Assembly: GCA_964511075.1 (NCBI GenBank) | Contig: CAZEDM010000010.1 | Coordinates: 25,507 to 89,506, forward strand | Source: an uncultured Ignavibacteria bacterium | GTDB lineage: Bacteria > Zixibacteria > MSB-5A5 > RBG-16-43-9 | Reading direction: 5' to 3' | DNA length: 64,000 nt | Made by a program: the position numbers and the translations under genes | The notes under the pieces: model-generated | Told to the model about the DNA's origin: nothing | What the model saw: only the letters and a program-made list of their open reading frames with translations | Databases searched by the model: none | Part shown: piece after piece, positions 18,813 to 40,622 of the stretch | How the letters are laid out: every line of letters starts with the position of its first letter | How positions within the stretch are numbered: the first letter of the stretch is position 1

Positions 18813-18834
18813 AAATCTTTTTTTTAAAGGAGTG

Positions 18835-20142: not shown

Positions 20143-20176
20143 GTAACTTTAGAAACTTATTTAAGGAGATATTACT

Positions 20177-21409: not shown

Positions 21410-21410
21410 A

Positions 21411-22091: not shown

Positions 22092-22143
22092 ATTAATTTT
22101 TTTTGCCGGGAGAGAAAAGTTGCAGTTTTTAGAGAGTGTAGGA

Positions 22144-23337
22144 ATGGCTTTAAAGTCACTTATCTCCAATAAGCTTCGCTCTATACTCACTCTCATTGGA
22201 GTCATAATCGGGGTCATGACCGTCATCGCGGTGGTCTCCATCATAGCCGGTATGAATAAATATGTGTCAGACAGGATATCGAGGTTAGGTTCCAGCACCT
22301 TCTTCGTGGATAAGTTCGGCATAACTATGAGTGAGGAGGATTATATAAACGCCCTTAAAAGGAAAGACCTTAGCATGGAGGATATGGAGGCAGTGAGGAA
22401 GAACTGTTCCCTATGCTGGAAAGTAGGAGCTAGGCAGGTTACTTTCAGGAAAGTCAAATATAGAAAAGAATATGTCAGCGATATCACAGTCGTAGGGGCT
22501 ACTGCTAATTTTACTGAGGTCATGGATTTCGATTTGAGCAGTGGAAGGTCACATACGGATTTCGAGGACGAACATAACCGCAGGGTGGCTCTGCTTGGAT
22601 GGGAGGTGGCAGACAACCTGTTTCCCAACCAGGACCCCATAGGCAAAGATGTCAAGATAGGTAATTATTACTTCAGGGTTGTGGGAGTGGCTGAGAAAAG
22701 AGGAACTTTTTTAGGACAGAGTCAGGATGATTTCGTTGTAATCCCCATTACTACTTTTAACAAGATCTTCGGCACCAAAAGGTATATGCTGATATTCGTC
22801 AAGGTGGAGGATTTCAGCTTGATGCAGCAGGCTCAGGACCAGGTTCGCCTGATACTCAGAGCCAGGAGACATGTCCCCTATGACAAACCAGATGATTTCG
22901 CCATTTCGACCTCTGACACTTTTATGGATTTATATCGAAATTTCACCTCAACCGCCTTTATAGTTATGATCGGGGTATCCTCTATCGCTCTGGTGGTCGG
23001 CGGCATAGTCATAATGAACATAATGCTGGTCTCGGTAACGGAGAGGACCAGGGAGATCGGCATACGTAAGGCGGTAGGGGCTAAGAAGAAGAACATCCTC
23101 TGGCAGTTTTTAGTAGAGTCAGTTACCCTGGCAATGGTAGGAGGGTTGATAGGGATTATCCTGGGCAGCATAATCGCCAAGTTAGTGTCAGCTACTACTC
23201 CGCTCCCAGCATCGATTGAACCCTGGTCAGTTATAAGCGGGCTTATTATTGCCTCCTCGGTAGGAATTTTCTTTGGGATCTTTCCTGCTATGAAAGCTGC
23301 CAAGTTAGACCCCATAGCATGTTTAAGGTATGAATAA
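22144..23337 (+). CDS. FtsX-like ABC permease (MacB family)
   Basis: Start chosen at MALKSLISNKLRSILTLIGVIIGV, because the track ORF starts earlier inside the ATPase gene. MacB periplasmic domain plus FtsX TM bundle. Confidence 0.75.
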   Translation: MALKSLISNKLRSILTLIGVIIGVMTVIAVVSIIAGMNKYVSDRISRLGSSTFFVDKFGITMSEEDYINALKRKDLSMEDMEAVRKNCSLCWKVGARQVTFRKVKYRKEYVSDITVVGATANFTEVMDFDLSSGRSHTDFEDEHNRRVALLGWEVADNLFPNQDPIGKDVKIGNYYFRVVGVAEKRGTFLGQSQDDFVVIPITTFNKIFGTKRYMLIFVKVEDFSLMQQAQDQVRLILRARRHVPYDKPDDFAISTSDTFMDLYRNFTSTAFIVMIGVSSIALVVGGIVIMNIMLVSVTERTREIGIRKAVGAKKKNILWQFLVESVTLAMVGGLIGIILGSIIAKLVSATTPLPASIEPWSVISGLIIASSVGIFFGIFPAMKAAKLDPIACLRYE

Positions 23338-23500
23338 GGAACAAAAGACAGAAGATGGAAAATAAAAGATTAGAGATTAAAGGGGGAATATTGCTTGTTT
23401 TCGGTCTCCTGACTAACAGCATTCTCTTCGTGGGTGAAAGGAGAGCAACGAAGAGCGGGATCAGAGATAAAAGATAAAAAAGAAAGAACATCTTGTAATT

Positions 23501-24751
23501 ATGAATCTGTTTGAGGTAAAAGAAGGTATTTTAATGGCCCTGGCCTCTCTTAAGGCTAATAAGATGCGCTCATTTTTGACTATCTTGGGAGTCCTCGTAG
23601 GTGTGACTGCGGTCATCGGGATGGTCTCCATTATCCAGGGTTTGAATAACAGCATGGCTCAGCAGATAGAGTCCCTGGGCTCGGATACAATCTATGTAAC
23701 CCGCTTTAAGATCGGAATTCGTATGGGAAGGATGCCGGAGGAGGAGAGGAATCGCAAGCCTATTACCTTTGAGGATGCTATGGCAGTAAGGGAATACTGC
23801 CCTTCGGTAAGCGAGGTTTCTCCCCAGAACTGGGGACCTGGCTCCAAAATCATAAAATACGGCAAGGAGGAGGTATCCTATTTCGATCTGATTGGAGTTA
23901 TGCCAGAATATGAGGTGGTGAATAATAACTACATAGCAGAAGGAAGGTTTTTCACTGATGCAGATGTAAACTATCGAGCTGATGTGCTGATATTGGGTCC
24001 GGATCTGGCTGAGAAACTTTTCCCTTTCCAGGACCCTGTGGGCAAAGAGGTGCTCTTAGGAGGAGCCAACTATTCTCCCAGGAGATTTACGGTTATCGGG
24101 GTGATGGAGAAAAGGCCTAACCTTCTGGGTGAGAGTATGAATAATTTCGTGCTTTTGCCTTACTGGACCTATATGCAGCTTTATCCGGAGGAGAAGGAAT
24201 TGCTCTTAGTTGCCAGGCCCAGATCACCGGCACTGATGTCCAAGGCGATTGACGAGATAACTGAGCTGATGAGGAGAAGGAGAGCCGTTCCTCCAGATAA
24301 GCCTAATGATTTCGCTGTCTCCACCCAGGATGACCTGATGAATGTTTATCATCAGATCACCGGTGCTATCTATTTGGTGATGGTGGTTATCTCCTCCATC
24401 GGGTTATTGGTCGGAGGAGTAGGGGTGATGAACATCATGCTGGTCTCGGTAACGGAAAGGACCAGGGAGATCGGGATAAGAAAGGCTATCGGGGCAAAGA
24501 AAAGAGATATTATCTGGCAGTTTTTGATCGAGGCCATGACTTTGAGCGGAAGCGGCGGGATATTGGGCATACTCATAGGACTTCTTTTAAGTCAGCTGAT
24601 TGGTGCAGTTACCCCACTACCAGCCAGCGTATCCTTGCCCTGGGTAATCATAGGCTTCTCCGTAGCAGTGGGGGTAGGATTGGTATTCGGCATCTATCCA
24701 GCTTATCGGGCGGCCAAGGTCGATCCAATTATCTCCTTAAGATACGAATAA
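23501..24751 (+). CDS. FtsX-like ABC permease (MacB family, second)
   Basis: Paralogous to the preceding ORF, with a conserved C-terminal ...DPI..LRYE. Confidence 0.85.
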   Translation: MNLFEVKEGILMALASLKANKMRSFLTILGVLVGVTAVIGMVSIIQGLNNSMAQQIESLGSDTIYVTRFKIGIRMGRMPEEERNRKPITFEDAMAVREYCPSVSEVSPQNWGPGSKIIKYGKEEVSYFDLIGVMPEYEVVNNNYIAEGRFFTDADVNYRADVLILGPDLAEKLFPFQDPVGKEVLLGGANYSPRRFTVIGVMEKRPNLLGESMNNFVLLPYWTYMQLYPEEKELLLVARPRSPALMSKAIDEITELMRRRRAVPPDKPNDFAVSTQDDLMNVYHQITGAIYLVMVVISSIGLLVGGVGVMNIMLVSVTERTREIGIRKAIGAKKRDIIWQFLIEAMTLSGSGGILGILIGLLLSQLIGAVTPLPASVSLPWVIIGFSVAVGVGLVFGIYPAYRAAKVDPIISLRYE

Positions 24752-27671: not shown

Positions 27672-28415
27672 ATGATAAAGACCTTCGATATAAGTAAGAT
27701 CTTTCTGGACAAAAAGAGAGGGAAGATAGTAGCGGTCGATGAGGTTACTATAGAATGCAAACCCGGGAAGATCTTTGGGCTTTTAGGCTTGAACGGCGCA
27801 GGCAAGACCACGCTGATGCGTCTTCTTTCCACAGTTTTAAAACCAACTTCCGGCACGGCTCAGGTAGCTGGCTTTGACATCCTTCAAGAGCCTCAAAAGG
27901 TGAAATCTAATATCGGGTTCCTATCCTCTGATACTGCCCTTTACCCCAGATTAACCGCAGAGGAGACCGTTACCTATTTTGCCAGATTGAACGGAATGGA
28001 GGAGAAGCTCATACAGGAGAGGAAGGAAAAACTCTTCAGGATCTTCGATATGGATTGGTACAGGGACAGACGGGTAGATAAACTTTCCTCCGGTATGAAG
28101 CAGAAAGTCTCTTTAGCCCGCACCGTGGTTCATGACCCGAAGGTGCTGATCTTAGATGAGCCCACCCTGGGACTGGATGTAATCACCTCCAGAAATATCA
28201 TACAATTCATACGTAAAGCCAAAGAGGAGAACAAATGCATCCTGTTTTCTACCCATATAATGCACGAGGCAGAGAAGCTCTGTGATGAAATCGCCATCAT
28301 CCATAGGGGAAGGATATTGACAGTTGGCACCCTGGAAGAGCTACGACACAAAGCCGGGCTGGAGGATTTAGACGAGGTCTTTGTTAAATTCATAGGGAGG
28401 GAAAATGAATCTTAA
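27672..28415 (+). CDS. ABC transporter ATP-binding protein (ABC-2/NatA-like)
   Basis: Walker A GLNGAGKTT, signature LSSGMKQKV and Walker B LILDEPTLGLD. Confidence 0.9.
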   Translation: MIKTFDISKIFLDKKRGKIVAVDEVTIECKPGKIFGLLGLNGAGKTTLMRLLSTVLKPTSGTAQVAGFDILQEPQKVKSNIGFLSSDTALYPRLTAEETVTYFARLNGMEEKLIQERKEKLFRIFDMDWYRDRRVDKLSSGMKQKVSLARTVVHDPKVLILDEPTLGLDVITSRNIIQFIRKAKEENKCILFSTHIMHEAEKLCDEIAIIHRGRILTVGTLEELRHKAGLEDLDEVFVKFIGRENES

Positions 28416-29598
28416 GAAAATAAGGATAATCTACCTAAAGGAGATGAAGGATACCTTAAGGGATAGACGAACTCTTATCTCTATGCTCTTGGTTCCTATT
28501 TTCCTCTTTCCTGTTTTGATTTTTGGGATGACTTCCTTAACTATGAAGATGGCCAAAAAAACTGCGGAAAGGGTTAGTCCCATAGCAGTTATAGGCGAAG
28601 AGGAAGCACCCGTACTCTTCTCCCTGCTCAAGGAAAACAGGTCTTTTACCATAGTCAGCCAAGAGGACTTCAGATTAGCCCTGAAGGAGAAAGAGATTGC
28701 CGCAGCAATAGAGTTCTCCAAGGGTTTTGAGGAAAAGATCAATGCTGGAGAATCTGCCCAGGCTCAGATCTACTATGATGCCGCTGAGATCAGATCAGAT
28801 ATGACCTCTGACAAGTTAGTAAATATCCTGGATGCTTACCAGGAGAGTGTCGTCACCCAGAGGTTAAAGATAAAGAATGTGGATAAGTCTTTGCTTCATC
28901 CGGTAGAAATTCAGAAAGAAAACCTTGCCCCCAAGGAGAAGATGGGAGGATACTTCCTCTCCATGTTTTTACCCTATCTGATTATGATTATGGCCTTGAC
29001 CGGAGCGATGTATCCAGCCATCGATTTAACTGCCGGTGAAAAAGAAAGGGGCACCATGGAGACTCTACTGGTGTCTCCAGCTACTCGGGCTGAGATCACC
29101 TCAGGTAAACTTTTAGCTGTTTTCACTGCCTCCCTTATCACCGCTATGGTATCAACAGCCAGTATGGTTATCAGTGCCGGTAGCGGTTTTGGCAGATTTG
29201 AGAAAATGGGTGAGAATGCGATTTTCTCCATCAATCCCCTTTCCATTTTAATCCTGCTTATACTTATGATCCCCTACTGCTGTCTGGCAAGCTCGGTTTT
29301 GCTCTCCTTAGCCCTTTTCGCAAAATCCTACAAGGAAGCCCAAAGCTACATTTCGCCTCTGCTGATAATCATCATTCTGCCGGCTATGGGTTCTTTTCTG
29401 CCAGGGCTGGAATTATCAGTGGGTATGGCTTTCATCCCGGTGATAAACATAAGCCTGACTTTAAAAGAGGTTCTCCTGGGAACATACAGTTGGGGGTATA
29501 TAGGGCTGATCTTCTTAAGCACCGTATTATATGCCGGGCTGGCGATTTTTATCACCCAACGGCTTTTCAAAAAAGAACAGGTTCTTTTCCGGACATAG
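28405..29598 (+). CDS. ABC-2 family transporter permease (NatB-like)
   Basis: N-terminal TM, a roughly 150-aa external loop, then five TM helices. It overlaps the ATPase by 11 nt. Confidence 0.75.
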   Translation: MNLKKIRIIYLKEMKDTLRDRRTLISMLLVPIFLFPVLIFGMTSLTMKMAKKTAERVSPIAVIGEEEAPVLFSLLKENRSFTIVSQEDFRLALKEKEIAAAIEFSKGFEEKINAGESAQAQIYYDAAEIRSDMTSDKLVNILDAYQESVVTQRLKIKNVDKSLLHPVEIQKENLAPKEKMGGYFLSMFLPYLIMIMALTGAMYPAIDLTAGEKERGTMETLLVSPATRAEITSGKLLAVFTASLITAMVSTASMVISAGSGFGRFEKMGENAIFSINPLSILILLILMIPYCCLASSVLLSLALFAKSYKEAQSYISPLLIIIILPAMGSFLPGLELSVGMAFIPVINISLTLKEVLLGTYSWGYIGLIFLSTVLYAGLAIFITQRLFKKEQVLFRT

Positions 29599-29618
29599 TT
29601 TTTTGCATTTCGTAGTGC

Positions 29619-29677
29619 GAGGCTTCAGCCTCGCTTGGGACAGGTGACCCTGAAAGGGTCGCACTACACTATCCTGA
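29619..29677. repeat. GC-rich nested hairpin element (GTAGTGCGA...TCGCACTAC)
   Basis: The 9-bp outer stem gtagtgcga/tcgcactac encloses the inner hairpin gcgaggc-ttca-gcctcgc. It lies between convergent genes. Confidence 0.5.
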
Positions 29678-29741
29678 GAAACTTAAAATTTCCCCTATGC
29701 GTCTTACGGAATTTTAGAAGCGGATAGTTTGCATTAAGCTG

Positions 29742-29771
29742 CAAATCCCACCTTGTGAGCAAGGTGGGATT
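29742..29771. terminator. perfect 12-bp hairpin aaatcccacctt/aaggtgggattt (possible terminator for the minus-strand lipoprotein gene)
   Basis: Perfect inverted repeat with a 6-nt loop, about 50 nt past the stop of the 29822..30613 gene. There is no clean U-tract. Confidence 0.35.
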
Positions 29772-29821
29772 TATTGAATTAGAGAGGCAGGCGATACAAA
29801 GATTAAATCCAAAAATTATGT

Positions 29822-30613
29822 TTATTCTTTAAAAACCCAGGTCCCTTCGGCTCTGATTCTCTCATCCTCAATCTGTTGAAAAATCAATTTCAAAGATTTC
29901 ACCCTTTTAGACAGGACAGGATTATTTAAGAAATCTCGCTTGGGAAAACAGAGCATCAGGTTCTTCTGATGGGTTTCCCACTCTGGTTTTCTATCCTCAG
30001 AGTGTAATTGCGGGAATCTTTCCCCTGCCTTTCGAGAAAGGGCTGGAGTTTCGTTTTCTTCCTCCAGAATTTGCAGTGGTTCATACTGATTCCCAGCATC
30101 GTCTTCGATAAAGATGATCCAACGGCTGGGGTCCAGATAGAGTTCTGACCAGGAAGTCTGTAATTTGCACCAGATAAGGAGATGGCTTTCAACCTCGTAA
30201 CGCTGAAAATAGGAGGTACGAAACCTTCTTTCCTCCTCAGGGGTCATATTAATCAAGACAGCGTAGTATTCTAACCCAGCTTCAATAAGCAGGGTATCCA
30301 TCAAAGTAGCATTAATCAGAATAGGGAATTGATTTTCTCCACCATCTCGATCCGTACCCTCAAACATATTGAGAGGGTTGAGTAATTGCAGAGGCGCTCC
30401 ACTCCTTGCAACCGCTCCGAACTGCACTGTCCATTTCTCCCACAATTTGGGGAAAAATTCCTCTGTCCGGACAGAGCTTTTTGAATCTAAAGAAGTGTCC
30501 ACATATTTTTTGGAAGAAGGCACGGCAGCACAGGAACTCAATACAGAGAAGGAAAAAACGATATCACAAAGAAACAATATGTACCACCGTGCCTTAAGCT
30601 TACAGGACTCCAT
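29822..30613 (-). CDS. lipoprotein, hypothetical
   Basis: Signal plus lipobox-like VLSSC in a 263-aa ORF. It is the last gene of the long minus-strand block. Confidence 0.5.
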   Translation of the reverse strand: MESCKLKARWYILFLCDIVFSFSVLSSCAAVPSSKKYVDTSLDSKSSVRTEEFFPKLWEKWTVQFGAVARSGAPLQLLNPLNMFEGTDRDGGENQFPILINATLMDTLLIEAGLEYYAVLINMTPEEERRFRTSYFQRYEVESHLLIWCKLQTSWSELYLDPSRWIIFIEDDAGNQYEPLQILEEENETPALSRKAGERFPQLHSEDRKPEWETHQKNLMLCFPKRDFLNNPVLSKRVKSLKLIFQQIEDERIRAEGTWVFKE

Positions 30614-30625
30614 GCGTAATTTCTC

Positions 30626-31498
30626 CTATTCGGCTGGAGGAGAAGCCAGTTGAGTTTCTATCCAAAGCTCCTGCTTTTCAGGTTTTTTCATAACAGGACC
30701 ACCCTTACCACCACCAGGAGGACCCCCACCCATGCCACCTCCAGCGGGACCACCGCCCATACCACCACCAGGAGGCATCATCCCTCCACCACCCATCTGT
30801 TTTTTCATATTCCCTCGATCGCCCAGATTAAGTTCTCCCCACTCCAATCCAAGACAGATCTTCTGTCCTGGCTGGGCATTGATGGCATAATCGAAGGTCT
30901 CACTTCTCTGTAATGGAATCTTGAATTCATAGGTATAAACACCCTGAAGAGAGTCAAAGCTGACTGCCGGGCCTGAAGAACCACCGGTGGGAATGGGTAT
31001 CTCCTGATTGCTTTTCTTGTAGATAACCATGAGTTGCTCAGCCATCGACTCCTGTTTCAGCCTGAGGCGCTCCTTCTGTTCCGGTGTGAGGTTATCCAGA
31101 AATCCACCTTGGCCTTCCATCCCGGATTTTTGCATATCGAAAGGAGGGGGCCCTCCCTTATAGCGGATTCCGAAATCTTTTTTCTCTTTCCCTGAGTTAT
31201 CCAGCCATAAGGTCACACCACCCATACTAATAAGACGTGCCCATTCCTGATTACTGAAACGGAAAAGAACATAAAGGTTTTCGCTGTTGTTACGCAGACC
31301 CAGCTGCACGCCACTTTTCTCCAGATAGTTGGTGGGTTTGCCGATCCATTCCGTCATCTGGCCATCTATTTGCACCGGCTCGTCTGACCAGTAGGTCTGG
31401 ACTTTCTCTTTCCCGCAGCCGGCTAAAAAGACTATACAGAAGAGTGTTGATAGCAGCAGTGTTTTTCCATTCGCCAGCTTAAAACTATGTTTGACCAT
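30626..31498 (-). CDS. lipoprotein with Met/Gly/Pro-rich C-terminal low-complexity tail
   Basis: Lipobox LAGCGKE. The tail reads MGGGGMMPPGGGMGGGPAGGGMGGGPPGGGKGGPVM, encoded at about 30682-30802. Confidence 0.55.
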   Translation of the reverse strand: MVKHSFKLANGKTLLLSTLFCIVFLAGCGKEKVQTYWSDEPVQIDGQMTEWIGKPTNYLEKSGVQLGLRNNSENLYVLFRFSNQEWARLISMGGVTLWLDNSGKEKKDFGIRYKGGPPPFDMQKSGMEGQGGFLDNLTPEQKERLRLKQESMAEQLMVIYKKSNQEIPIPTGGSSGPAVSFDSLQGVYTYEFKIPLQRSETFDYAINAQPGQKICLGLEWGELNLGDRGNMKKQMGGGGMMPPGGGMGGGPAGGGMGGGPPGGGKGGPVMKKPEKQELWIETQLASPPAE

Positions 31499-31590
31499 TT
31501 TTACCTCATGTATAATTGGTTAGAGAGCTGAGGTTAAGAAGTATTTCCTAACCTCAGCCTGATGAGAGATACAAAGGGAGAGGGCCTCGC

Positions 31591-32526
31591 TCATTTGAGA
31601 AAAACCATGCGGTTGGTTACAGAATAAGCTCCTGCTTCAATGCGATAAAAATAGATTCCGCTGGCTACCTTTACTCCGGTTTTATCTCTACCATCCCAGA
31701 TTACCCCTCTGCTGCCTGCGTTCTGGTACTCGTCCACTAACTGCTTTACTTTTTGACCCTGGATATTATAGATGGTGAGCTTGACCCGGGAATCCTCAGG
31801 CAGGTTGTAGGCGATCTCGGTCTCAGGATTAAAGGGATTAGGATAGTTCCATGCTTCGATAGTCTCGGCAGCAGACGTTTTTTTGGATCCAGCATTTTCG
31901 GTGTTCTCAGTTGATAGAACACCATATCCTTCCACTATCCCATCGACTACAACTTTTATCTCCTGGCGGGAAGCACCTTGGTCCCTCATTTTCTTGATCT
32001 TCTCCATGACAGCTTCCCTTTGCTCATCAGTCAGCTTGGATAGGAAGGGTGGTCCGAAACCACCTGGACCACCAGGGCCCGGGTGTTCAGGCGGTTCGAT
32101 CCCAAATCCTTCAAGCATTTTATCCACTTCAGCTTTAATTTCCTTTGGGGAGGCATTCTGGCTTTGCAGCTCCTTCATTTTCTCCTGAATAGCTTCTCTC
32201 TGCTCATCTGTCAATTTGCCCAACAAGTCACTCGGAAGCCCAAAGCCCCTATGTCTATTCGCTCCTTCTGGTTTTTCCGGCACTTCGACTCCATACCCTT
32301 CAAGCATTTTATCCACTTCAGCTTTAATTTCCTTTGGGGAGGCATTCTGGCTTTGCAGCTCCTTTACCTCCTCCTGAATAGCTTCTCTCTGCTCATCTGT
32401 CAGGCCGGATAAGAAGCCTTTTCCATCAGGGGCCTGAGGAAACTGGGCAGAAATTGCCTCCCAGGGATGCATAATTATAAGGGCTAAAAGGACCAGAATC
32501 CCGATGGATATTTTATGCGCTTTCAT
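31591..32526 (-). CDS. secreted protein with three LTXXQ (Spy/CpxP-like) repeats and a T9SS C-terminal sorting domain
   Basis: Signal peptide, then three roughly 57-aa repeats (LTDEQREAIQE.[MV]KELQSQNASPKEIKAEVDKMLEG). The C-terminus (...KLTIYNIQGQKV.QLVD...SGIYFYRIEAGAYSVTNRMVFLK) matches the Por/T9SS CTD. Confidence 0.7.
   Translation of the reverse strand: MKAHKISIGILVLLALIIMHPWEAISAQFPQAPDGKGFLSGLTDEQREAIQEEVKELQSQNASPKEIKAEVDKMLEGYGVEVPEKPEGANRHRGFGLPSDLLGKLTDEQREAIQEKMKELQSQNASPKEIKAEVDKMLEGFGIEPPEHPGPGGPGGFGPPFLSKLTDEQREAVMEKIKKMRDQGASRQEIKVVVDGIVEGYGVLSTENTENAGSKKTSAAETIEAWNYPNPFNPETEIAYNLPEDSRVKLTIYNIQGQKVKQLVDEYQNAGSRGVIWDGRDKTGVKVASGIYFYRIEAGAYSVTNRMVFLK
32085..32400. repeat. near-identical ~125-nt direct repeat (period ~177 nt) inside the LTXXQ/T9SS gene
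   Basis: Sequence at 32100-32225 is nearly identical to 32275-32400 (ttcaagcattttatccacttcagctttaatttcctttggggaggcattctggctttgcagctcc...). Confidence 0.8.
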
Positions 32527-32771
32527 TGCGAGCTCCTCTCTGTTGAAATCATCTTCTTCAGATTTCTCAGCTCATTATAGAACTGAACGAACTGGCTGTT
32601 GATGAATTCCACCTTCAGCTGATCGATATCCCCCTCCACCTCAAAGGTGAAAATACTCTTTGATTTTTTTTGATCTGATCTGATGAGAGGATAGCCCTTT
32701 ATTTTCAGATAGGCTGAAAATGCCAGGTCATCCGTGGTGATGTGATTATTCCTGATCTTATCCGATTTCAT
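32523..32771 (-). CDS. small hypothetical protein (82 aa)
   Basis: ORF in operon context. It overlaps the downstream gene by 4 nt and starts 3 nt after the upstream stop. Confidence 0.4.
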   Translation of the reverse strand: MKSDKIRNNHITTDDLAFSAYLKIKGYPLIRSDQKKSKSIFTFEVEGDIDQLKVEFINSQFVQFYNELRNLKKMISTERSSQ

Positions 32772-32773
32772 GA

Positions 32774-33295
32774 TTATTTTCTGTCCTCCAGTCTTTTTTT
32801 AAACGGTTTCTCCCTTGCTCCCTTTCCAGGCATGCCCTCCATTCTCATGGGGTTAGCTCTTTCCTTGAAAAAGGTGAAGAATTTCTTCTGCTGCTCCGGG
32901 GTCAAGAATGACTTTTCCTCTAACATATGCATAATTGCCTTTTTCTGCAGCTCAGTCTGAAGGCTGCCAATCTCCTCGGAAAGCGTATTAACTTTATCCA
33001 TATTCGGTTGCTCAACTGAAAGTTCGTTCATAAGCTTGGTTCTCTTAGCTCTGAGGGAATCAAAAATCGGCTCCATTTCCCCTCTGATCTTCCTGAAGTG
33101 GGCTTCAAATTTTTTCACCTGCTCCTCATTTAAATCCAGCTCCTGCTTGATAAAACCCACCGGCGTATCAGCTCGCACCGGGGGTGGGGGGAAGGGTTTT
33201 CTGGGATAAAATCGGTGATAGGCGATGGTTACCAGTGCGGTAACATTGATAAGGGTTAAGACTATTAGAAACAGAATAAGTAAATTCTTCTTCAT
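32774..33295 (-). CDS. periplasmic LTXXQ-motif protein (Spy/CpxP/ZraP-like 'heavy-metal sensor' family)
   Basis: TM/signal followed by LNEEQVKKF, LSVEQ and LTPEQQKKF motifs, in a 173-aa ORF. It lies immediately downstream of the anti-sigma gene. Confidence 0.6.
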   Translation of the reverse strand: MKKNLLILFLIVLTLINVTALVTIAYHRFYPRKPFPPPPVRADTPVGFIKQELDLNEEQVKKFEAHFRKIRGEMEPIFDSLRAKRTKLMNELSVEQPNMDKVNTLSEEIGSLQTELQKKAIMHMLEEKSFLTPEQQKKFFTFFKERANPMRMEGMPGKGAREKPFKKRLEDRK

Positions 33296-33304
33296 CCTTA
33301 CCTC

Positions 33305-33799
33305 CTATTCTCCCGAGATCATATTCAAATAGGTGGCTTCAATGGAACCGCTGGGTAAATCGGAGAGGGGGTTGACATAGTGAGAATCGACAAACTGTTT
33401 TAAAGCTGTGGTGCGGTTATTTAGCTGGGATACTGCCTGCCCATTTATCGAAGGTAGATTCCCCAGGGAATAGCCCAGCAGAATACAAACCCCTAAAACT
33501 GCAACTGCAAGTACGGGACGAGCCCAGCCTGAGACCCTCCCTATACCACCTACCACGGGATTTTTCCCTTCTTCATAATCGATGATCCTCTGGTTAAGTC
33601 TTGTCCAGAAATAAGGAGGGGGCTGAATTCTCTCTTTGTCTTTAAGGATATTCCACAGGAGGAAAAATTCCTTTAGCAGACGGGAGCATTCATGACAGAT
33701 CTTAAGGTGTTTTTCCATTTGCACCAGCTGATCTTCTGGCAGTTTCTTCTCCAAAAAGAAAAGAAAATTGGCTCTGACATTTTTACAGTTCATTTTCAC
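33305..33799 (-). CDS. zinc-binding (ZAS-type) anti-sigma factor
   Basis: The N-terminus has C5-x25-H31-x3-C-x2-C (HLKICHEC), matching the ZAS C/H-x23-26-H-x3-C-x2-C motif. A single TM (VLAVAVLGVCILLGY) and a short periplasmic tail follow. Confidence 0.6.
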   Translation of the reverse strand: MKMNCKNVRANFLFFLEKKLPEDQLVQMEKHLKICHECSRLLKEFFLLWNILKDKERIQPPPYFWTRLNQRIIDYEEGKNPVVGGIGRVSGWARPVLAVAVLGVCILLGYSLGNLPSINGQAVSQLNNRTTALKQFVDSHYVNPLSDLPSGSIEATYLNMISGE

Positions 33800-33865
33800 T
33801 GATCTCCGCTTCAGTATTAAGACACAGATTCTGACAAAAACTTGCGATTTTTTCTCATATTCTTT

Positions 33866-35821
33866 TTACTCATACCTCAGGGCATCAATAGGGTTCAAAA
33901 GTGAGGCCTTGCGTGCCGGGTAGAATCCAAAGAAAAGTCCCACCGCCAGGGCAAAAGAGAAAGACAGAGCCACGGAAACAGGAGTGATCACCGTCTCCCA
34001 TCCGCCGAATTTGCTCATGAGGTTGCTGACCGATATCCCTAAGAAGATGCCGATTATCCCGCCGCTCAGCGATACGATGATAGCCTCGATAAGAAACTGG
34101 CTCAGGATATCGCGTCTCTGTGCACCAATGGCCTTGCGGATACCTATTTCCCTGGTCCTCTCAGTAACGGATACGAACATTATGTTCATAATGCCGATTC
34201 CTCCCACGATAAGGCTTACCGCTGCTATACCGGCAAGTAGCATAGTAAAAGTATTACTGGTTTCCTGCACGGTAGTGAGAATATCGGCCTGGGACATAAT
34301 ATTGAAGTCATCTTCATCGCCTGATTTGAGCCTGTGCCTTTCACGCAAGATGGAGGTGATTTCAGCTTCGGCTTTGTCCATAACCTTTTCAGACTTTGCC
34401 TTCACATTGATAATCGAAACATAATCCACCCCAAATAACCGTTTCTGCGCAGTTTTCAGAGGAATAAAGATGACATCATCTTCATCCCTGAATCCGCTGC
34501 CTCCTTTTTCGCTCATTACGCCGATAACCTGAAAACTGCTGCGCTTTATCTTTATATACTCTCCGATGGGGTCTTTTTCTCCGAAGAGCTCTTCAACTAC
34601 TGTTTTCCCCAGGACGGCTACCCGCCGCATCAGGCGATTATCCTCCTCAGTCAAAAAAGTTCCCTGTTCCACTGGAAAATTTCTCACATCTGGATAGTTT
34701 GGTGTCACTCCATTTATCCCGGTATTGGTGTTTTCATTTCCGTAAACTGCCTGAGCATTTCTGGAAAAATTTGCATCAGTTTTCTCCACGGAAGGGCATT
34801 CCTCAGCTATAGCCTGAGCATCTTCATATACCAAAGAGGTAACGCTTCCGCTGGCTGAACGGGTAGGTCCTCTTTGAAATGCACCAGAACGCACCATCAG
34901 AAGATTTGCTCCCAGCTGACTGATACGCTTAGTAATCTGAGCCCCGGCCCCTTGGCCTATGGCTATCATCGCAATTACTGCTCCAACTCCCACGATGATT
35001 CCCAGCATGGTCAAAAAACTGCGAAGTTTATTGGAGAAGATGGAAGATATGGCCATGGTTAAGCTTTCTATTATTTCAGCCAGAGAGAACCGTCTCTTTT
35101 TCTTCTGACTTCCTGCGGACATATAAGTCAGGCTAACCTCTTTCACATCTGTTGTCCTCTGGTCTTCCACGATCTGGCCATCTTTTAAGCGAATGATCCT
35201 TTGAGCATGGGAGGCTACCGAGTCGTCGTGCGTTATCAGGACTATGGTAATGCCCTTATTATGCAGTTCTTTAAGGATGGACATTATCTCCTGGCCGGAT
35301 CTGGAATCGAGATTACCCGTGGGCTCATCAGCCAGGATTATGGAAGGCTGGTTCACCAGAGCACGGGCTATGGCAACTCTCTGCTGTTGACCTCCGGATA
35401 ATTCTCTGGGGCGGTGATGAGCCCTGTCCTCAAGATTCACCGAGCGCAGGGCGTTAAGCGCCATCTCTTTTCGTTTCCTATGGTCACCCGCATATATGAG
35501 AGGAAGCTCCACATTGGACAGAGCGGTCAAACGAGGAAGAAGATTGAAAGTCTGAAAAACAAAGCCTATATTCTCATTTCTTATATAGGCAAGCCGGGAT
35601 TCGGAGAACTTGCTTACATTTATGCCATCAAATAGGAATTCACCATCGGTGGGAATATCCAGACAGCCCAGGATATTCAGGAGAGTGGACTTGCCCGATC
35701 CCGAAGGTCCCATTATAGCGATAAACTCGCCATCCTCTATTTTCAGGCTTATGTCCTTCAAAGCCGGGACCTCCACAGTCCCCATCTGGTAGATTTTGCT
35801 TATATTTTTTAACTCTATCAT
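33866..35821 (-). CDS. macB: MacB-type fused ABC transporter ATP-binding/permease protein
   Basis: An N-terminal ATPase domain ([34 protein letters not shown]) is fused to a periplasmic domain and an FtsX TM bundle. 651 aa. Confidence 0.9.
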   Translation of the reverse strand: MIELKNISKIYQMGTVEVPALKDISLKIEDGEFIAIMGPSGSGKSTLLNILGCLDIPTDGEFLFDGINVSKFSESRLAYIRNENIGFVFQTFNLLPRLTALSNVELPLIYAGDHRKRKEMALNALRSVNLEDRAHHRPRELSGGQQQRVAIARALVNQPSIILADEPTGNLDSRSGQEIMSILKELHNKGITIVLITHDDSVASHAQRIIRLKDGQIVEDQRTTDVKEVSLTYMSAGSQKKKRRFSLAEIIESLTMAISSIFSNKLRSFLTMLGIIVGVGAVIAMIAIGQGAGAQITKRISQLGANLLMVRSGAFQRGPTRSASGSVTSLVYEDAQAIAEECPSVEKTDANFSRNAQAVYGNENTNTGINGVTPNYPDVRNFPVEQGTFLTEEDNRLMRRVAVLGKTVVEELFGEKDPIGEYIKIKRSSFQVIGVMSEKGGSGFRDEDDVIFIPLKTAQKRLFGVDYVSIINVKAKSEKVMDKAEAEITSILRERHRLKSGDEDDFNIMSQADILTTVQETSNTFTMLLAGIAAVSLIVGGIGIMNIMFVSVTERTREIGIRKAIGAQRRDILSQFLIEAIIVSLSGGIIGIFLGISVSNLMSKFGGWETVITPVSVALSFSFALAVGLFFGFYPARKASLLNPIDALRYE

Positions 35822-36813
35822 CTCGGTCCCCTCATCATACCCGGCATTGATGGCCTGAAGTTATCTTTCTTCTTCTGGGTATTTTCCGTACTGCCTGTTA
35901 CTATTATGTTGTCACCTTCCTTCAGACCTTCGATCACCTCAATTAACTTTCCATCCGTGATACCGGTTTTGATCTTTCTGGGTATGGGCCTGTCCGTTAA
36001 TAACATAACCAAACTCATATCATCTACTTCCTTTACTGCATTTTTAGGTATCACCAGCACACTATCTTTCTTTGCTGTTATAAATTCCACGTTGGCTGTC
36101 ATTCCAGAGGCCCAATAGCGTGGAACTTTCTGGGGTTCCACCATCACCTCGTATTCCACCACATCCGAAACCAGATCGCCCTCGCGTGAGATCTTGGTGA
36201 CCTTTCCATTCAATTCTTCATCCGGAAAGGCATCCAGCGTAATCCTGGTCTTTTGTCCCAATTGGATCTTGCCTATATCTGCCTCATCCACTTCCACGGT
36301 TGCCACAAGCCTGTCTGCAATTACGAAGAGAACGCTGGCAGTGGAGACATTCTGTCCCGGCTCACAGGAGCGATCTATTACCTCCCCGGATATCGAATTG
36401 GTGAGAGGCACCGACTTGTAGGCTTTATCTGCGATCTCATAAGCCATCTCCGCCTCTTTTATAGTCTCAGAATCATTTTGCCTTTGCGCAGATTCCAGAC
36501 CCGAGCGCGCCGCATCCAGGAGTGAAATCCTATCCTCGCTTGAGATCCAGGCAAGGATATCCCCTTTCTTGACTTTGTCTCCCTCATCCACCAGAACTTT
36601 GTCTATCCTTCCGCTGACAGACGGGCTTACCTCGACCCTGGTGTAGGGCTCGATGGTGCCGGTGGAAAGAACTTTAATCTCTATGTTGCCTCTTTCTACC
36701 CTGGTTGTCTGATAAGTAGGCTGAGTTGAATTTTTGTCATTCCTTTTTTTAAAATAAAACAGTCCAGCCAGAACGATGATTATAAATATGATTCCTATTA
36801 TTAACTTTTTCAT
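35818..36813 (-). CDS. macA: efflux periplasmic adaptor subunit (MacA-like)
   Basis: TM anchor plus lipoyl hairpin. It overlaps macB by 4 nt. Confidence 0.8.
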   Translation of the reverse strand: MKKLIIGIIFIIIVLAGLFYFKKRNDKNSTQPTYQTTRVERGNIEIKVLSTGTIEPYTRVEVSPSVSGRIDKVLVDEGDKVKKGDILAWISSEDRISLLDAARSGLESAQRQNDSETIKEAEMAYEIADKAYKSVPLTNSISGEVIDRSCEPGQNVSTASVLFVIADRLVATVEVDEADIGKIQLGQKTRITLDAFPDEELNGKVTKISREGDLVSDVVEYEVMVEPQKVPRYWASGMTANVEFITAKKDSVLVIPKNAVKEVDDMSLVMLLTDRPIPRKIKTGITDGKLIEVIEGLKEGDNIIVTGSTENTQKKKDNFRPSMPGMMRGPR

Positions 36814-38072
36814 TAGCTCCTCCTTCCCCAGACGTTTTCTAATCTGGCGATAGCTACCCGCAGATTATATAAGGCATTGACCTGTTTATTCTCTGCGCTG
36901 GTAAGATCGCTTTCTTTCTGTTGCAGGAAAAAATAAGATGTCAGCCCTTGCTCGTACTGAAGCTTGGTCAGCTGGTACATCTCACGGGAAGCCTGCAAAG
37001 TTTTACTATTTACCTCGATTATTTTCTCTGCAAGTTCCCAGTTTGAATAAGCCTGCTCAATCTCCTCCTCTATTTGCTGCTCCAGCTCAACAATTTTCGC
37101 ATCCTGTTCTGTAAGTGAGAGAGTGGCCTCTTTGACCTTTGCTTTTCTGGAGAAACCATCAAAGAGAGGTAAGGATAAGCTTAATCCCGCACTCCACCCT
37201 CCTCCTTCCAGGTTTAGTAAGTCGCTACCCTGCCATCCATAGGAGGAGGATAATGAGACAGATGGATAATAGTCGCTTTTAGCCTGGGTAACCTGTAATT
37301 TCAACACTTCCTTGTTAATCCTTTGGTAGCGTATATCCGACCTTTCGGTTTTCGCCTGTTCAATTATACTATTAAGAGAGGGAAAACTTATGCTTTCGTC
37401 TGCATAGCTTATGGATAATTCTGCCCTTCTGGGTCTGCCCAGAAGCAGATTAAGCTCTATCTTAGCCAAGGTCAATTCATCTTCTGCCTGCTTCTTGTCA
37501 TATTCTGCCTGGGATAGACTAGCCTCGGATTCCTTTACCGCGGGAGAGCTTTCTCTGCCTGCATCGTATTTCAATTTGATAAACACAAGGTCTTCCTTTC
37601 GTCTTTTCAGGACGTCCTCAGCCAGTGCAATCTGTTCCTGCTTCAATAGGATTTTAAAAAAAGCCTCCTTTACCGAGAGGATCAGGTCCTCCTCCCCTTG
37701 ATGATAATTCTCCTCAGCTATCTCAACTTTAGCTTTAGCAATCTTTATACCTGCGCGAATACTTCCTCCTTGGTAAAAGGGATAGGAAAGCCCTAGGCTG
37801 GCTGAATAGCTGTTTGTTCTTTCCCCGGATGAACCTTCGTTATTCCGGTATGAACTGGAAAGATTCAGGCTGGGATAATAGGAAGAATAAGCGGAAGTCA
37901 CACCCACCTGGGATTTTTCAATTGCAGTTTTTAGCTGAACCAGTTTAGGGTTATTCTCTTTTGCCAGGTAGATGCATTCCTGGAGGGTTAAAGGCTGCTG
38001 GGCAAAAGAACTGGTATTTAGAACCGACAAAAAGAAGATAAATAGAAAGTGGCGATGGAATTTAACAGTCAT
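36813..38072 (-). CDS. TolC-family outer membrane protein
   Basis: Signal peptide and duplicated TolC repeats. Its stop overlaps the macA start. Confidence 0.8.
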   Translation of the reverse strand: MTVKFHRHFLFIFFLSVLNTSSFAQQPLTLQECIYLAKENNPKLVQLKTAIEKSQVGVTSAYSSYYPSLNLSSSYRNNEGSSGERTNSYSASLGLSYPFYQGGSIRAGIKIAKAKVEIAEENYHQGEEDLILSVKEAFFKILLKQEQIALAEDVLKRRKEDLVFIKLKYDAGRESSPAVKESEASLSQAEYDKKQAEDELTLAKIELNLLLGRPRRAELSISYADESISFPSLNSIIEQAKTERSDIRYQRINKEVLKLQVTQAKSDYYPSVSLSSSYGWQGSDLLNLEGGGWSAGLSLSLPLFDGFSRKAKVKEATLSLTEQDAKIVELEQQIEEEIEQAYSNWELAEKIIEVNSKTLQASREMYQLTKLQYEQGLTSYFFLQQKESDLTSAENKQVNALYNLRVAIARLENVWGRRS

Positions 38073-38172
38073 CTTGTCTCCTTATTTTTTTCAGATTATT
38101 TAGAATTCACTTCCTAAAACTCCTTTCTTCAAGCATATGACACATGCTTTTTATCAAACTTGCGGCTCGAGC

Positions 38173-38748
38173 TCATTTTTCTTTCAGGAGATGAATCAAA
38201 TTTTTCTGCAGGTTTGTTTTTGCACGGTGGATAAGGGATTCGATGGAAGAAAGGGATTTATGTAGAACTTTGGCGATTTCCTGGTAAGACAGCCCTTCGT
38301 ACTGGTGAAGGACGAAGGCTGCTTTTTGCTTTGCAGGCAGGGAATCGATCGCTTCCCGTATGAGTATATCCTGTTCCTTTCTTTCCAGCGCCTTATCCGG
38401 CCGCTCCGAGTCTGAAGTCTGTAGCCCGGTAACCTGTTGACGCTCTCCCTCCAATAAAGAGCTCAGACTCTTAAGCCAGGAGGGCCTCTTTTTGTCGCGG
38501 ATGAAGTTCAGAGAACGATTTACCGCAATACGGTAAAGCCAGGTGGAGACTTTAGCTTCACCCCGGAAATTTTCAGCAGCTTTATATACCTGAAAAAATA
38601 CCTCCTGAGATACATCCTCAGCATCCTGTTTATTGCCAATCAGGTTGTAGCAGGTGTTAAGGACCAGCACCTGATATTTCTCAACCAGTGCTCTGAAGGC
38701 ACCATGGTCTTTTGCTGAGATCCTCCGTATTAGTTCGGCATCATTCAT
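38173..38748 (-). CDS. ECF-type RNA polymerase sigma-70 family factor
   Basis: Region 2 (VSQEVFFQVYKAAENFRGEAKVSTWLYRIAVNRSLNFIR) and region 4 (LSYQEIAKVLHKSLSSIESLIHRAKTNL). Confidence 0.85.
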   Translation of the reverse strand: MNDAELIRRISAKDHGAFRALVEKYQVLVLNTCYNLIGNKQDAEDVSQEVFFQVYKAAENFRGEAKVSTWLYRIAVNRSLNFIRDKKRPSWLKSLSSLLEGERQQVTGLQTSDSERPDKALERKEQDILIREAIDSLPAKQKAAFVLHQYEGLSYQEIAKVLHKSLSSIESLIHRAKTNLQKNLIHLLKEK

Positions 38749-39164
38749 TGGGAATAATGGAATTGAACTAACCCCTTAACATACAGAGACTTCCTTTAGT
38801 CGGATATTCCCCTCAAGAAAAGTGCAGTGATACAGCACGATTGTGAAAATAGTTGAGAAATTTGTTAAGTCAACATAATTCTAATAGCAAAAATAAGAAA
38901 GTAACTATTGTAAGGCTCTAAGGATTTTAGCATTTACTCCCATCTCCACGGTTTTATGGACGGTTTTAATATTCTCAGATTTTGTTTAACCCCTTCCACA
39001 GTTGTCCTGAATTATTTGATTACTTTTTGGGTTGACTTTTTAGACAGAAAAAATGGCAAGCACTTTCAAATTTGTCATCACATTTTGAATTTTCATTTCT
39101 TTAGATATATAAAAGTTGATAAAGTGATATATCCCTTCTGGTATTCTTAGTTTTTAAAATTTCA

Positions 39165-39200
39165 CCCGCAAGCTATTTCAACTTGCGGATTTCTTTATCT
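39165..39200 (+). terminator. intrinsic terminator-like hairpin with U-tract (no annotated plus-strand gene upstream)
   Basis: Stem ccgcaag/cttgcgg (7 bp), loop ctatttcaa, then ATTTCTTTAT. Confidence 0.5.
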
Positions 39201-39246
39201 CCTAGGCTTCTATTTTCTTATATAAGATATCGGGTAGACTCGCAAA

Positions 39247-39275
39247 GAGTGGAGACAAGCTCCACCCTTTTTCAG
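39247..39275 (-). terminator. terminator hairpin directly after the stop of the small secreted protein gene
   Basis: gtggag-acaag-ctccac, flanked by A-run/T-run (gaaaaag on minus, ctttttc on plus). It is 10 nt from the stop codon. Confidence 0.5.
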
Positions 39276-39596
39276 CTATTCACTCCTCAAGGGACAGCTA
39301 TATTTGGCCCCATATCCGGTGCCGTCTTTTGGTCCTATGCCAAAAATCCCGGTTCCATCACCTGGCCCATAACCTTTGTCTTTCCTGCACTGGGATTTCA
39401 TTCCTATCCCTTGTCCGTAGTTGTCACAGATGCCATCCTTATTCTTATCCACAAAATAGTGCCCCTTAGCTGTATCCGCCCTGGAATAAGAGGGCTGACT
39501 GAAAACCAAGCCAGTGGTCACGAGCATAAAGGATAGGAGGACTAAAAGGATCAAGCCGGTTTTGGGGATGAGGTTGTTTTTGAAAAGTTTCGGCAT
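39276..39596 (-). CDS. small secreted Gly-rich protein, hypothetical
   Basis: Start chosen at MPKLFKNNLIPKTGLILLVLLSF (signal peptide). The mature part is Gly/Asp/Cys-containing. Confidence 0.4.
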   Translation of the reverse strand: MPKLFKNNLIPKTGLILLVLLSFMLVTTGLVFSQPSYSRADTAKGHYFVDKNKDGICDNYGQGIGMKSQCRKDKGYGPGDGTGIFGIGPKDGTGYGAKYSCPLRSE

Positions 39597-39839
39597 TTCA
39601 AAGCTCCTTTCTTTTTTGAGTTTTTCAAATTTCAGACTGGTCTCCTGATTCTGCATTCATTTGGTTTGACACTCAAAAAGCAGAAAAGTTTAAAAGGAAA
39701 GAATTTTTTATTGTGAAGACAGTTCGATGCTTGTCTGTGCCAACTATCAAAATCTTATGGCATTCTGCAACTCAATTTATTTTATTAGTTTGAAACCTTT
39801 TGGGAATTACAAATTGCAGATTATTCTAGAGGTGAACCG

Positions 39840-40622
39840 ATGAGTAGAAGAGAATCGAAATCTTTTGAGCAATTGGTTAGCTTAATGAGAAAACTCCGTT
39901 CCAAAAAGGGCTGCCCCTGGGACAGGACCCAGACCCATAGGTCACTTCTTCCTTATCTTCTGGAAGAGGCTTATGAGGTCTTGGATTCAGTGGAGAAAAA
40001 GGATGATTTGAAACTTAAGGAGGAATTAGGGGATCTGCTTTTGCAGATAGTTTTTCATTCCGAGATAGCCAGGGAGGAGAACAGGTTTGATATCTATGAG
40101 GTCATCGGAAATCTGAGGGAAAAGCTTATTCAAAGGCATCCTCATGTTTTCAAAAAGAAGAAGAAGTTGTCTTCGACTCAGGTGATAAAAAACTGGGAGC
40201 ATATAAAGCTGGCAACCTCGAATAACAAATCGGTCCTATCAGGGATACCTGAAAAGCTTCCCGCTCTGCTCAAGGCTTATAGAGTGGGAGAAAAGGTAAG
40301 TAGATATGGATTCGACTGGCAGAGAAAAGGGGACATACTTCCCAAGTTGAAAGAGGAGTTAAGGGAATTTGAAAAAGCCTATCGAAGAAAGAATAGGAAA
40401 AGAATCGAGGAGGAGTTCGGGGACATATTCTTCACCCTGGTGAACCTATCCCGTCATCTGAAAATAAATCCAGAACTTGCCCTGGGAAGGACTGTTCAGA
40501 AATTCATTCGAAGATTCAATTATATTGAAGAAGAGTTATCCAGAAACAAGAAGAGTTTGAGAGAGACCAGCCTGAAAGAACTCGATAACCTGTGGGAGAA
40601 ATCCAAAGGGAGAAAAGTATAA
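39840..40622 (+). CDS. mazG: nucleoside triphosphate pyrophosphohydrolase MazG
   Basis: Two MazG EE..E..D blocks: EEAYEVLD/EELGDLLLQIVFHSEIA and EEFGDIFFTLVNLSRHL. CPWD motif. Confidence 0.85.
   Translation: MSRRESKSFEQLVSLMRKLRSKKGCPWDRTQTHRSLLPYLLEEAYEVLDSVEKKDDLKLKEELGDLLLQIVFHSEIAREENRFDIYEVIGNLREKLIQRHPHVFKKKKKLSSTQVIKNWEHIKLATSNNKSVLSGIPEKLPALLKAYRVGEKVSRYGFDWQRKGDILPKLKEELREFEKAYRRKNRKRIEEEFGDIFFTLVNLSRHLKINPELALGRTVQKFIRRFNYIEEELSRNKKSLRETSLKELDNLWEKSKGRKV

Follow-up and report, generated by a model that had tools for sequence, protein, structure and literature searches.

A MacB-type pump cassette probably inserted between an ECF sigma factor and its ZAS anti-sigma factor in a putative envelope-stress module of Zixibacteria

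Ten consecutive minus-strand genes at positions 29822-38748 of a 64,000-nucleotide stretch of contig CAZEDM010000010.1 (the window) encode an extracytoplasmic function (ECF) sigma factor, a tripartite MacAB-TolC-type efflux pump, a membrane anti-sigma factor, an LTXXQ protein and four further proteins; homologues of these genes come from sources named candidate division Zixibacteria. The locus is probably an envelope-stress module built on the ECF sigma factor and a membrane anti-sigma factor of the ZAS type, into which a pre-existing cassette of outer-membrane factor (OEP), periplasmic adaptor (MFP) and MacB genes was inserted in the lineage of the window. The base module would be widespread in Zixibacteria and would consist of seven genes, namely those for the sigma factor, the anti-sigma factor, the LTXXQ protein, a DUF5659 protein, an LTXXQ-repeat protein exported by the type IX secretion system (T9SS), a DOMON-like lipoprotein and a second lipoprotein. 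Four observations carry this reading: the components themselves, their conserved linkage, a motif duplicated in front of the pump and of the anti-sigma gene, and a scar of the insertion. The features are as follows.

38846..38873, minus strand: candidate housekeeping-type promoter of the sigma gene, TTGACT-N16-TATTTT (consensus scan)
38173..38748, minus strand: ECF (group 4) sigma factor, 191 aa (Sigma70_r2 71 bits, r4_2 67 bits, TIGR02937 118 bits against a cutoff of 42.9)
38139..38163, minus strand: P1, GCAAGTTT-N12-GTGTC in front of the OEP gene, a motif resembling an ECF-type promoter (exact match, position weight matrix (PWM) score 28.6 bits)
38096..38110, minus strand: putative relic of the anti-sigma 5' end, GTG AAT TCT AAA TAA, read as V-N-S-K-stop, 28 nt after the -10 block of P1
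36813..38072, minus strand: outer-membrane factor of the TolC/OEP family, 419 aa (PF02321 245 bits, two repeats)
35818..36813, minus strand: periplasmic adaptor (MFP), 331 aa (HlyD_D23, HlyD_3, TIGR01730 129 bits against a cutoff of 94.9)
33866..35821, minus strand: fused MacB-type ABC transporter, nucleotide-binding domain (NBD) plus FtsX permease with periplasmic core domain, 651 aa (ABC_tran 122, MacB_PCD 187, FtsX 76 bits)
33821..33845, minus strand: P2, the same motif GCAAGTTT-N12-GTGTC repeated in front of the anti-sigma gene (exact match, PWM 31.2 bits)
33305..33799, minus strand, likely start 33793: ZAS-motif anti-sigma factor of the membrane (21.3 bits for zf-HC2, whose gathering score is 22.2)
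32774..33295, minus strand: membrane-anchored LTXXQ/Metal_resist protein (CnrX/Spy fold), 173 aa (PF13801 53.9 bits, PF07813 37.3 bits)
32523..32771, minus strand: DUF5659 protein without signal peptide, 82 aa (PF18903 43 bits)
31591..32526, minus strand: secreted T9SS cargo, three LTDEQ units plus type-A C-terminal sorting domain (TIGR04183 39 bits, cutoff 23)
30626..31498, minus strand: lipoprotein with DOMON/CBM9-like beta-sandwich and Gly/Met/Pro-rich linker, 290 aa
29822..30613, minus strand: lipoprotein, 263 aa, last gene of the module (no Pfam/NCBIfam family)
29743..29772, minus strand: probable operon terminator, a 13-bp GC-rich hairpin (fold, ~50 nt after the last stop codon)

The first-pass annotation, made from the letters of the window alone, had described ten minus-strand genes in this order, run together with tiny gaps or overlaps. 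All ten open reading frames (ORFs) are present within 29822-38748, and profile searches back nearly every label. The close packing is real at such junctions as that of the MFP start, which overlaps the OEP stop by 1 nt, but it does not extend to two gaps of 100 nt and ~70 nt, each of which holds a conserved promoter-like motif. The distance of about 4.4 kb given for the sigma and anti-sigma genes agrees with the 4.38 kb from sigma stop to anti-sigma start. Related loci and contigs were compared with the window under the labels L001-L099 and P0151. The ten-gene order is kept in L099, L001, L004, L007, L009, L010 and L018; since it recurs while the flanking genes differ, the cluster is treated as a unit. 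The genes downstream of the anti-sigma gene, which had been proposed to belong to the same system, lie in this conserved module and are linked to the sigma/anti-sigma pair across related loci.

Two spacers, the one behind the sigma stop and the one behind the MacB stop, contain CGCAAGTTT-N12-GTGTCAtA. Exact matches to the core GCAAGTTT-N12-GTGTC number just two on both strands of the window (128 kb), where 0 are expected, and a PWM scan of the window reveals no third site of at least 12 bits. P1 is kept at the same place in seven loci (L001, L004, L007, L009, L010, L018 and L099), and P2 in every locus that holds the junction between MacB and the anti-sigma gene. Every pump-bearing locus has two copies, and every pump-less locus, including the distant L098, has a single copy between the sigma and anti-sigma genes. 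In ~770 kb of unrelated MacB loci the core is not found, and a relaxed pattern gives scattered degenerate matches only. Promoters of RpoE and AlgU have the consensus GGAACTT-N16-TCxxA. Read as GCAAGTT-N16-TCATA, the motif resembles this geometry, which fits the closest solved relatives of the sigma factor.

The 164-aa protein had been proposed to be the anti-sigma factor of this sigma factor, and as far as genomics goes the comparison bears this out. The protein has one transmembrane (TM) segment and the motif C5-x25-H31-x3-C35-x2-C38, that is, an N-terminal H-x3-C-x2-C with an upstream Cys, as in ZAS proteins. The spacing C-x25-H-x3-C-x2-C, correctly read in the first pass, is invariant in 33 homologues and 8 further orthologues. 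Translation most likely starts at ATG 33793, because the homologues start there, and in the resulting 162-aa form the motif residues, again invariant, are C3, H29, C33 and C36. The profile match expected for such a protein is found in the orthologues, which are annotated with PF13490; the window's own protein falls just short of it. NCBIfam anti-sigma and RsrA models score weakly, and there are weak profile matches to RsiW and RsrA. The TM segment is followed by a ~50-aa periplasmic tail with the invariant end G-S-I-E-A-T-Y, which is a plausible contact for the LTXXQ protein or for a protease.

An orthologous sigma gene, its product 62-72% identical to the window sigma factor, lies directly next to the zf-HC2 gene in at least seven pump-less loci: L008, L011, L014, L015, L016, L098 and the P0151 contig. 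L098 is a metagenome-assembled genome labelled KSB1; the other loci with an adjacent pair are from Zixibacteria. The gene order in the pump-less loci is sigma, zf-HC2, LTXXQ, DUF5659, T9SS repeat protein and lipoproteins. Because the orthologous pair is adjacent in at least seven loci, the 162/164-aa protein is regarded as the cognate anti-sigma factor. A different partner within the window was also looked for: the sigma gene is the only ECF sigma gene in the 64 kb, the window has no other zf-HC2 gene, and no second sigma or anti-sigma factor able to pair with either partner was found there.

That the pump stands inserted between sigma and anti-sigma genes, as had also been claimed, is supported by the duplicated promoter-like motif together with a remnant of the anti-sigma 5' end. 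At 28 nt after the -10 block of P1, the same offset at which the true anti-sigma start (MNCK) follows P2, a start codon is found with codons for N-x-K behind it. In L007 the relic reads MNPKEVEKN and the anti-sigma factor MNCKNIKKN. In L099, L001, L004, L007 and L009 the relic is an upstream ORF (uORF) of 13 codons whose TGA overlaps the OEP start codon (ATGA/GTGA), which suggests translational coupling or a leader peptide; it is cut to 4 codons in the window and in L018 and is disrupted in L010. The segment of ~80 nt from P1 to the OEP start was aligned with that from P2 into the anti-sigma coding region in 8 loci and scored against 200 shuffles; in six of the eight (L001, L004, L007, L009, L010 and L099) the alignment beats all shuffles. 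The duplicated motif and the relic together indicate that the pump cassette was inserted and that P1 arose as a copy of the promoter and leader of the anti-sigma gene together with its first codons. The insertion site would probably have lain a few codons inside the anti-sigma gene, and the duplicated part would amount to ~85-90 bp, covering the promoter, the leader and the first ~10 codons.

The cassette itself has MacB-type tripartite architecture: ABC_tran, MacB_PCD and FtsX are joined in one protein of 651 aa, with the MFP and OEP genes immediately upstream. The proteins score under the models for the E. coli equivalogs (NF007826 553 bits, cutoff 966; NF008606 104, cutoff 342; NF007002 83, cutoff 495), and the OEP reaches 176 bits with TIGR01844, under the cutoff of 225. 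Orthologous pumps also stand alone in L020/L021, L019 and L017, with MacB identities of 70-84% where the next matches show 53% or less. The L020 and L021 pumps lie between a ChlI-like gene and unknown genes, downstream of that of L017 come a radical-SAM gene and further unrelated genes, and no anti-sigma homologue was found downstream of the L019 pump. In a neighbour-joining (NJ) tree the stand-alone pumps of L020/L021 and L019 branch basal to the embedded ones. The reverse step seems to have taken place in L008. This pump-less locus nests with the pump-bearing L007 and L009 (NJ, bootstrap 94/75), and its spacer consists of the left flank of P1 of L007 joined to the right flank of P2 of L007; loss of the pump by recombination between the repeats is therefore likely in L008. 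A gene of the phage integrase family is located ~770 nt upstream of the L008 sigma gene (L008:1641-2411). In L029:2-2114 a MacB orthologue (72%) is followed directly by a homologue of the DOMON-like lipoprotein (44%); this locus is without sigma, anti-sigma and LTXXQ genes and has a DarT gene downstream. The arrangement hints at a functional link between pump and lipoprotein.

The sigma factor has only the sigma-2 and sigma-4 domains and exceeds its family cutoff, which places it among the ECF (group 4) factors. Its closest solved relatives are AlgU, SigW and RpoE with 86-106 bits (AlgU 106), as compared to 40 bits for CnrH (4cxf). Upstream of its gene, TTGACT-N16-TATTTT is located inside a ~45-nt block identical between the window and its nearest relative L099, in an intergenic region that is 89% identical overall. 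The generic scan for sigma-70 promoters and terminators gave no more sites than shuffled sequences and was used only for this conserved TTGACT block. Another candidate upstream of the sigma gene, GCACTTTT-N16-GACTA, was rejected since it is poorly conserved in L099. Most related loci carry a second ECF-like motif upstream of the sigma gene, TAAACC-N13-16-GTGTC, which is absent from the window; its positions are L001:1041, L007:4971, L008:2977, L009:4982, L010:4989, L016:9816, L098:6525 and L097:9853. In L097, from the complete Zixibacteria genome CP070839, the TAAACC-type motif precedes, by ~148 nt, a gene that stands alone and encodes a homologue of the 290-aa lipoprotein. This motif may be an autoregulatory or regulon promoter variant.

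The 173-aa protein belongs to the LTXXQ/Metal_resist superfamily, with 53.9 bits for PF13801 (threshold 29.2) and 37.3 bits for PF07813 (24.3). It has an N-terminal TM anchor and is a candidate periplasmic sensor or co-regulator. No other protein of the module is as conserved as the DUF5659 protein: its columns have a mean identity of 82%, 41 of ~78 aligned positions are invariant, and the L098 copy is 77% identical, the anti-sigma factor of L098 being visibly far more diverged than its DUF5659. It is apparently cytoplasmic. A PDB profile search reveals no solved relative of it, and no paper on it was found in the literature searched. In L014:5248-5964 and in the P0151 contig (11680-12396) an extra DUF4397 gene lies between the LTXXQ gene and DUF5659, and L098 has two LTXXQ paralogues in tandem.

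The next protein qualifies as a type-A T9SS cargo by TIGR04183 (39, cutoff 23), Por_Secre_tail (29.6, cutoff 27) and a hydrophobic N-terminus; FlgD_ig was matched as well. It consists of three ~60-aa units that each start with LTDEQ, its orthologues having 3 to 5 LTxEQ motifs, and it scores below threshold with PF13801 and PF07813 (23.8 and 16.9 bits). Both lipoproteins have an invariant lipobox Cys and no Pfam family, and PDB profile searches with them gave nothing significant. The 290-aa lipoprotein contains a beta-sandwich superposable on DOMON/CBM9 domains. Its Gly/Met/Pro-rich linker is encoded by a 27-nt tandem repeat of 2.9 copies at 30698-30775, the only repeat that a tandem-repeat search returned; linker length and Met content vary among orthologues, with Met replaced by Arg/Gly in L008. 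The gene for the 263-aa lipoprotein follows that for the DOMON lipoprotein in L001, L004, L010, L012, L013, L015 and L016, and a single-sequence AlphaFold2 (AF2) model of this protein has a pLDDT of 30 and gives no usable fold. The minus strand of 29600-29830 folds with -73.2 kcal/mol (z = -5.6) into the hairpin AAAUCCCACCUUG...CAAGGUGGGAUUU, and the hairpin at 29743-29772 probably ends the operon. An Rfam scan of 29000-40500 gave only a sub-threshold psbNH match, which is the terminator hairpin.

For promoter function, sigma specificity, signal, release mechanism and pump substrate we infer a scheme of the following kind. The sigma factor would be expressed from the housekeeping-type promoter and held at the membrane by the ZAS anti-sigma factor. 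A periplasmic signal would be read through the anti-sigma tail and/or the LTXXQ partner, and the sigma factor would be released, either by proteolysis as in RsiW or by a conformational change as in CnrYX. The free sigma factor would then fire the two copies of GCAAGTT-N16-TCATA, P1 driving the OEP-MFP-MacB pump, P2 driving the anti-sigma gene, as negative feedback, together with the periplasmic and surface effectors. As the signal, general envelope or protein-folding stress is favoured over metal.

Several points weigh against this reading. The zf-HC2 score of the window protein (21.3) is just below the Pfam gathering score of 22.2. The window's own P1/P2 alignment scores 34 against a shuffle maximum of 40 (z ~3.7), and because it is not above the best shuffle, the relic argument rests mainly on the sister loci. 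The direction of the insertion or deletion is readable for L008 and not for L011, L014, L015 and L016, and the NJ trees are small, with some nodes weakly supported or without a support value. The promoter role of P1 and P2 and their reading by this sigma factor are suggested by conservation, position and geometry only. Autoregulation is typical of ECF systems; no ECF-type motif of either type was found upstream of the window's own sigma gene, so sigma autoregulation is not evident in the window.

Three other explanations have to be weighed. The first-pass annotation had allowed for a metal-stress regulon, and in its CnrYXH-like form the LTXXQ/Metal_resist protein would bind periplasmic metal and relieve the anti-sigma factor, the pump and the downstream proteins detoxifying the metal. 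The PF13801 match of 53.9 bits, the Met/Gly-rich tail of the DOMON lipoprotein and an end-to-end profile alignment with NccX/CnrX, in which 9 of 11 sequences retain the H119 equivalent, speak for it, as does the connection of ECF281, ECF290 and ECF291 with heavy-metal stress drawn from gene context (Casas-Pastor et al. 2021, PMC7826278). The resemblance to NccX/CnrX is marginal, however (E 0.02-0.07), and an unrelated eL6 protein scores better. CnrX binds metal through H42, H46, E63 and H119 (and M123). Conserved counterparts of H42, H46, E63 and M123 are missing, L007 and L008 have Tyr in place of the sole periplasmic His, and the Met residues of the lipoprotein tail are replaced by Arg/Gly in L008. 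Because the CnrX metal ligands are not conserved, metal sensing is not supported. In addition, the anti-sigma factor is of the ZAS and not the CnrY type, CnrH is a far more distant relative of the sigma factor than are AlgU, RpoE and SigW (40 vs. 106 bits), and MacB-type pumps are not known to export metal. Taken together, this makes a metal-stress regulon unlikely.

A signal of thiol or redox stress in the cytoplasm, to which the ZAS zinc site itself would respond in the manner of RsrA, with the periplasmic partners as outputs only, seems improbable. It would account for the invariant spacing C-x25-H-x3-C-x2-C, which is that of C11/H37/C41/C44 in RsrA, for the weak matches to RsrA models and for the AhpC, glutaredoxin, rubrerythrin and NifU genes that precede the module in L015, a neighbourhood that was found in L015 only. 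It fits less well with a membrane-anchored anti-sigma factor with the invariant periplasmic tail GSIEATY and with an obligatory periplasmic LTXXQ neighbour, which points to extracytoplasmic input. In membrane ZAS proteins such as RsiW the zinc is structural and control is by proteolysis; the closest solved pair here is SigW/RsiW, itself controlled by proteolysis, and the earlier suggestion that a ZAS motif implies thiol or redox sensing does not hold up. A passenger role of the pump is no better a prospect than redox sensing: the cassette would merely occupy the spacer, transcribed independently or by read-through, and P1 would be a decaying duplicate without a role. The same pump does occur elsewhere as a stand-alone operon without either motif, and the relic coding part beside P1 is decaying. 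However, the -35 and -10 blocks of P1 are intact in 8 of 8 pump-bearing loci, whereas the relic ORF is broken in 3 of 8 and the sequence between and after the blocks diverges, and no other conserved promoter-like element was found between the sigma stop and the OEP start. An envelope-stress module with an inserted, sigma-controlled pump remains the preferred reading.

Among described systems the closest by gene context is ECF281, whose members have a zinc-finger anti-sigma gene at +1 and a heavy-metal-resistance (PF13801) gene at +2 (PMC7826278). The same three components occur here in the same order; the likeness is one of gene context, the sigma factor being placed by its relatives and not by ECF hidden Markov models. 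The +1/+2 layout is reproduced exactly in the pump-less L008, L011, L014, L015, L016 and L098, but in the window the anti-sigma gene is at +4 and the PF13801 gene at +5 because the three-gene pump lies between. Further points of difference are that the nearest solved relatives of the window sigma factor are AlgU, RpoE and SigW, and that DUF5659, the T9SS LTXXQ-repeat cargo and the DOMON lipoprotein do not occur in the passages of PMC7826278 drawn on here. The architecture had been thought to be undescribed. This is so in part: the sigma/anti-sigma/heavy-metal-resistance trio is already described as the ECF281 context in those passages, and what is new is the pump-split version, no description of a pump cassette that splits a sigma/anti-sigma pair with a duplicated ECF promoter having been found in the literature searched.

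In Cupriavidus metallidurans, the system CnrYXH-CnrCBA (ECF291) shares with the module an ECF sigma factor, a membrane anti-sigma factor and a periplasmic partner of PF13801 fold beside a tripartite pump, which in both cases would be expected under control of the sigma factor. The pump of the window is of the ABC/MacB type and not a resistance-nodulation-division (RND) pump, and it lies between the sigma and anti-sigma genes and not downstream of a compact cnrYXH. The anti-sigma factor is a ZAS protein of 162 aa, unlike the short CnrY; apart from a largely conserved H119 equivalent the CnrX ligands are missing, and CnrH is only a distant relative of the sigma factor. In Bacillus subtilis, SigW-RsiW (PDB 5wuq) resembles the pair of the window in combining an RpoE/SigW-like sigma factor with a single-pass membrane anti-sigma factor that carries HxxxCxxC. 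This structure was found by both proteins, by the sigma factor with 87.7 bits and by the anti-sigma profile with E 0.25, below significance. RsiW has no LTXXQ partner, however, sigW and rsiW are adjacent, and nothing in the analysis pointed to proteases of the PrsW/RasP type.

The pump resembles MacAB-TolC in its fused NBD-FtsX permease with the MacB periplasmic core domain, its MFP and its OEP, all in one tightly packed unit; its proteins differ in not reaching the scores that define the equivalogs of E. coli MacB, MacA and TolC, and neither control of such a pump by an ECF promoter nor its position inside a sigma/anti-sigma operon was found in the literature searched. CpxP works in the periplasm, where it inhibits a membrane signal transducer or acts as its co-sensor. 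The LTXXQ protein resembles CpxP/Spy in its family match (PF07813, 37 bits) and its stress-response context, but it is TM-anchored, its partner is an anti-sigma factor and not a histidine kinase, and the module has a second, LTXXQ-repeat protein predicted to be exported by the T9SS.

The surroundings of the module hold further transport genes. A second, unrelated MacAB-TolC-like set lies at 18787-24751 on the plus strand (OEP 18787-20142, MFP 20177-21409, ABC ATPase 21411-22091, FtsX-type permeases 22009-23337 and 23501-24751); its proteins are 25-53% identical to the pump proteins of the operon. A pair of ABC ATPase and ABC-2 permease at 27672-29598, also on the plus strand, converges on the module end. 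In L016:17600-20576 and in the P0151 contig at 15887-20582 a cluster of TetR, MFP, two ABC ATPases and ABC-2 permeases lies ~0.4-2.6 kb downstream of the pump-less module. On the other side, the gene at 39276-39656 (minus strand), located upstream of the 527-nt intergenic region of the sigma gene, encodes a secreted 126-aa protein that is Gly-rich, with a DKNKDGICDN motif, several Cys and no Pfam family. It was considered as a member of the module and rejected, as no homologue was found in the fetched loci screened (L001-L098); L099 has a gene in the same position. A terminator-like hairpin at 39249-39265 follows this gene.

A wider joint reading is possible, although it must be called doubtful as a whole: the seven-gene module would be a phylum-wide, uncharacterised envelope-stress system whose regulon grows and shrinks by cut-and-paste. 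Among its outputs would be a DOMON-type lipoprotein, a cytoplasmic DUF5659 factor of very high conservation and a Spy-like poly-LTXXQ protein that is exported by the T9SS and acts beyond the outer membrane. A whole efflux operon would have been taken up through an insertion in which the ECF promoter and the leader were duplicated, and could be lost again by recombination between the two promoter copies. Translation of the first gene of the pump would now be coupled to that of the relic uORF of 13 codons.

On the probable reading, the locus would be a concrete, sequence-level example of an ECF regulon gaining a new output, in the form of a pump operon together with a duplicate of a sigma-dependent promoter, and of a normally inseparable sigma/anti-sigma pair being split without breaking the feedback loop. 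It also calls for caution in context-based ECF classification and anti-sigma prediction, since a search of positions +/-1 or 2 would miss a cognate anti-sigma factor at +4. The candidate promoter motif may be usable for regulon prediction in Zixibacteria genomes. For this uncultured phylum, the comparison brings out a conserved, unstudied module of ZAS anti-sigma factor, LTXXQ anchor protein, DUF5659, T9SS LTXXQ-repeat cargo and DOMON lipoprotein.

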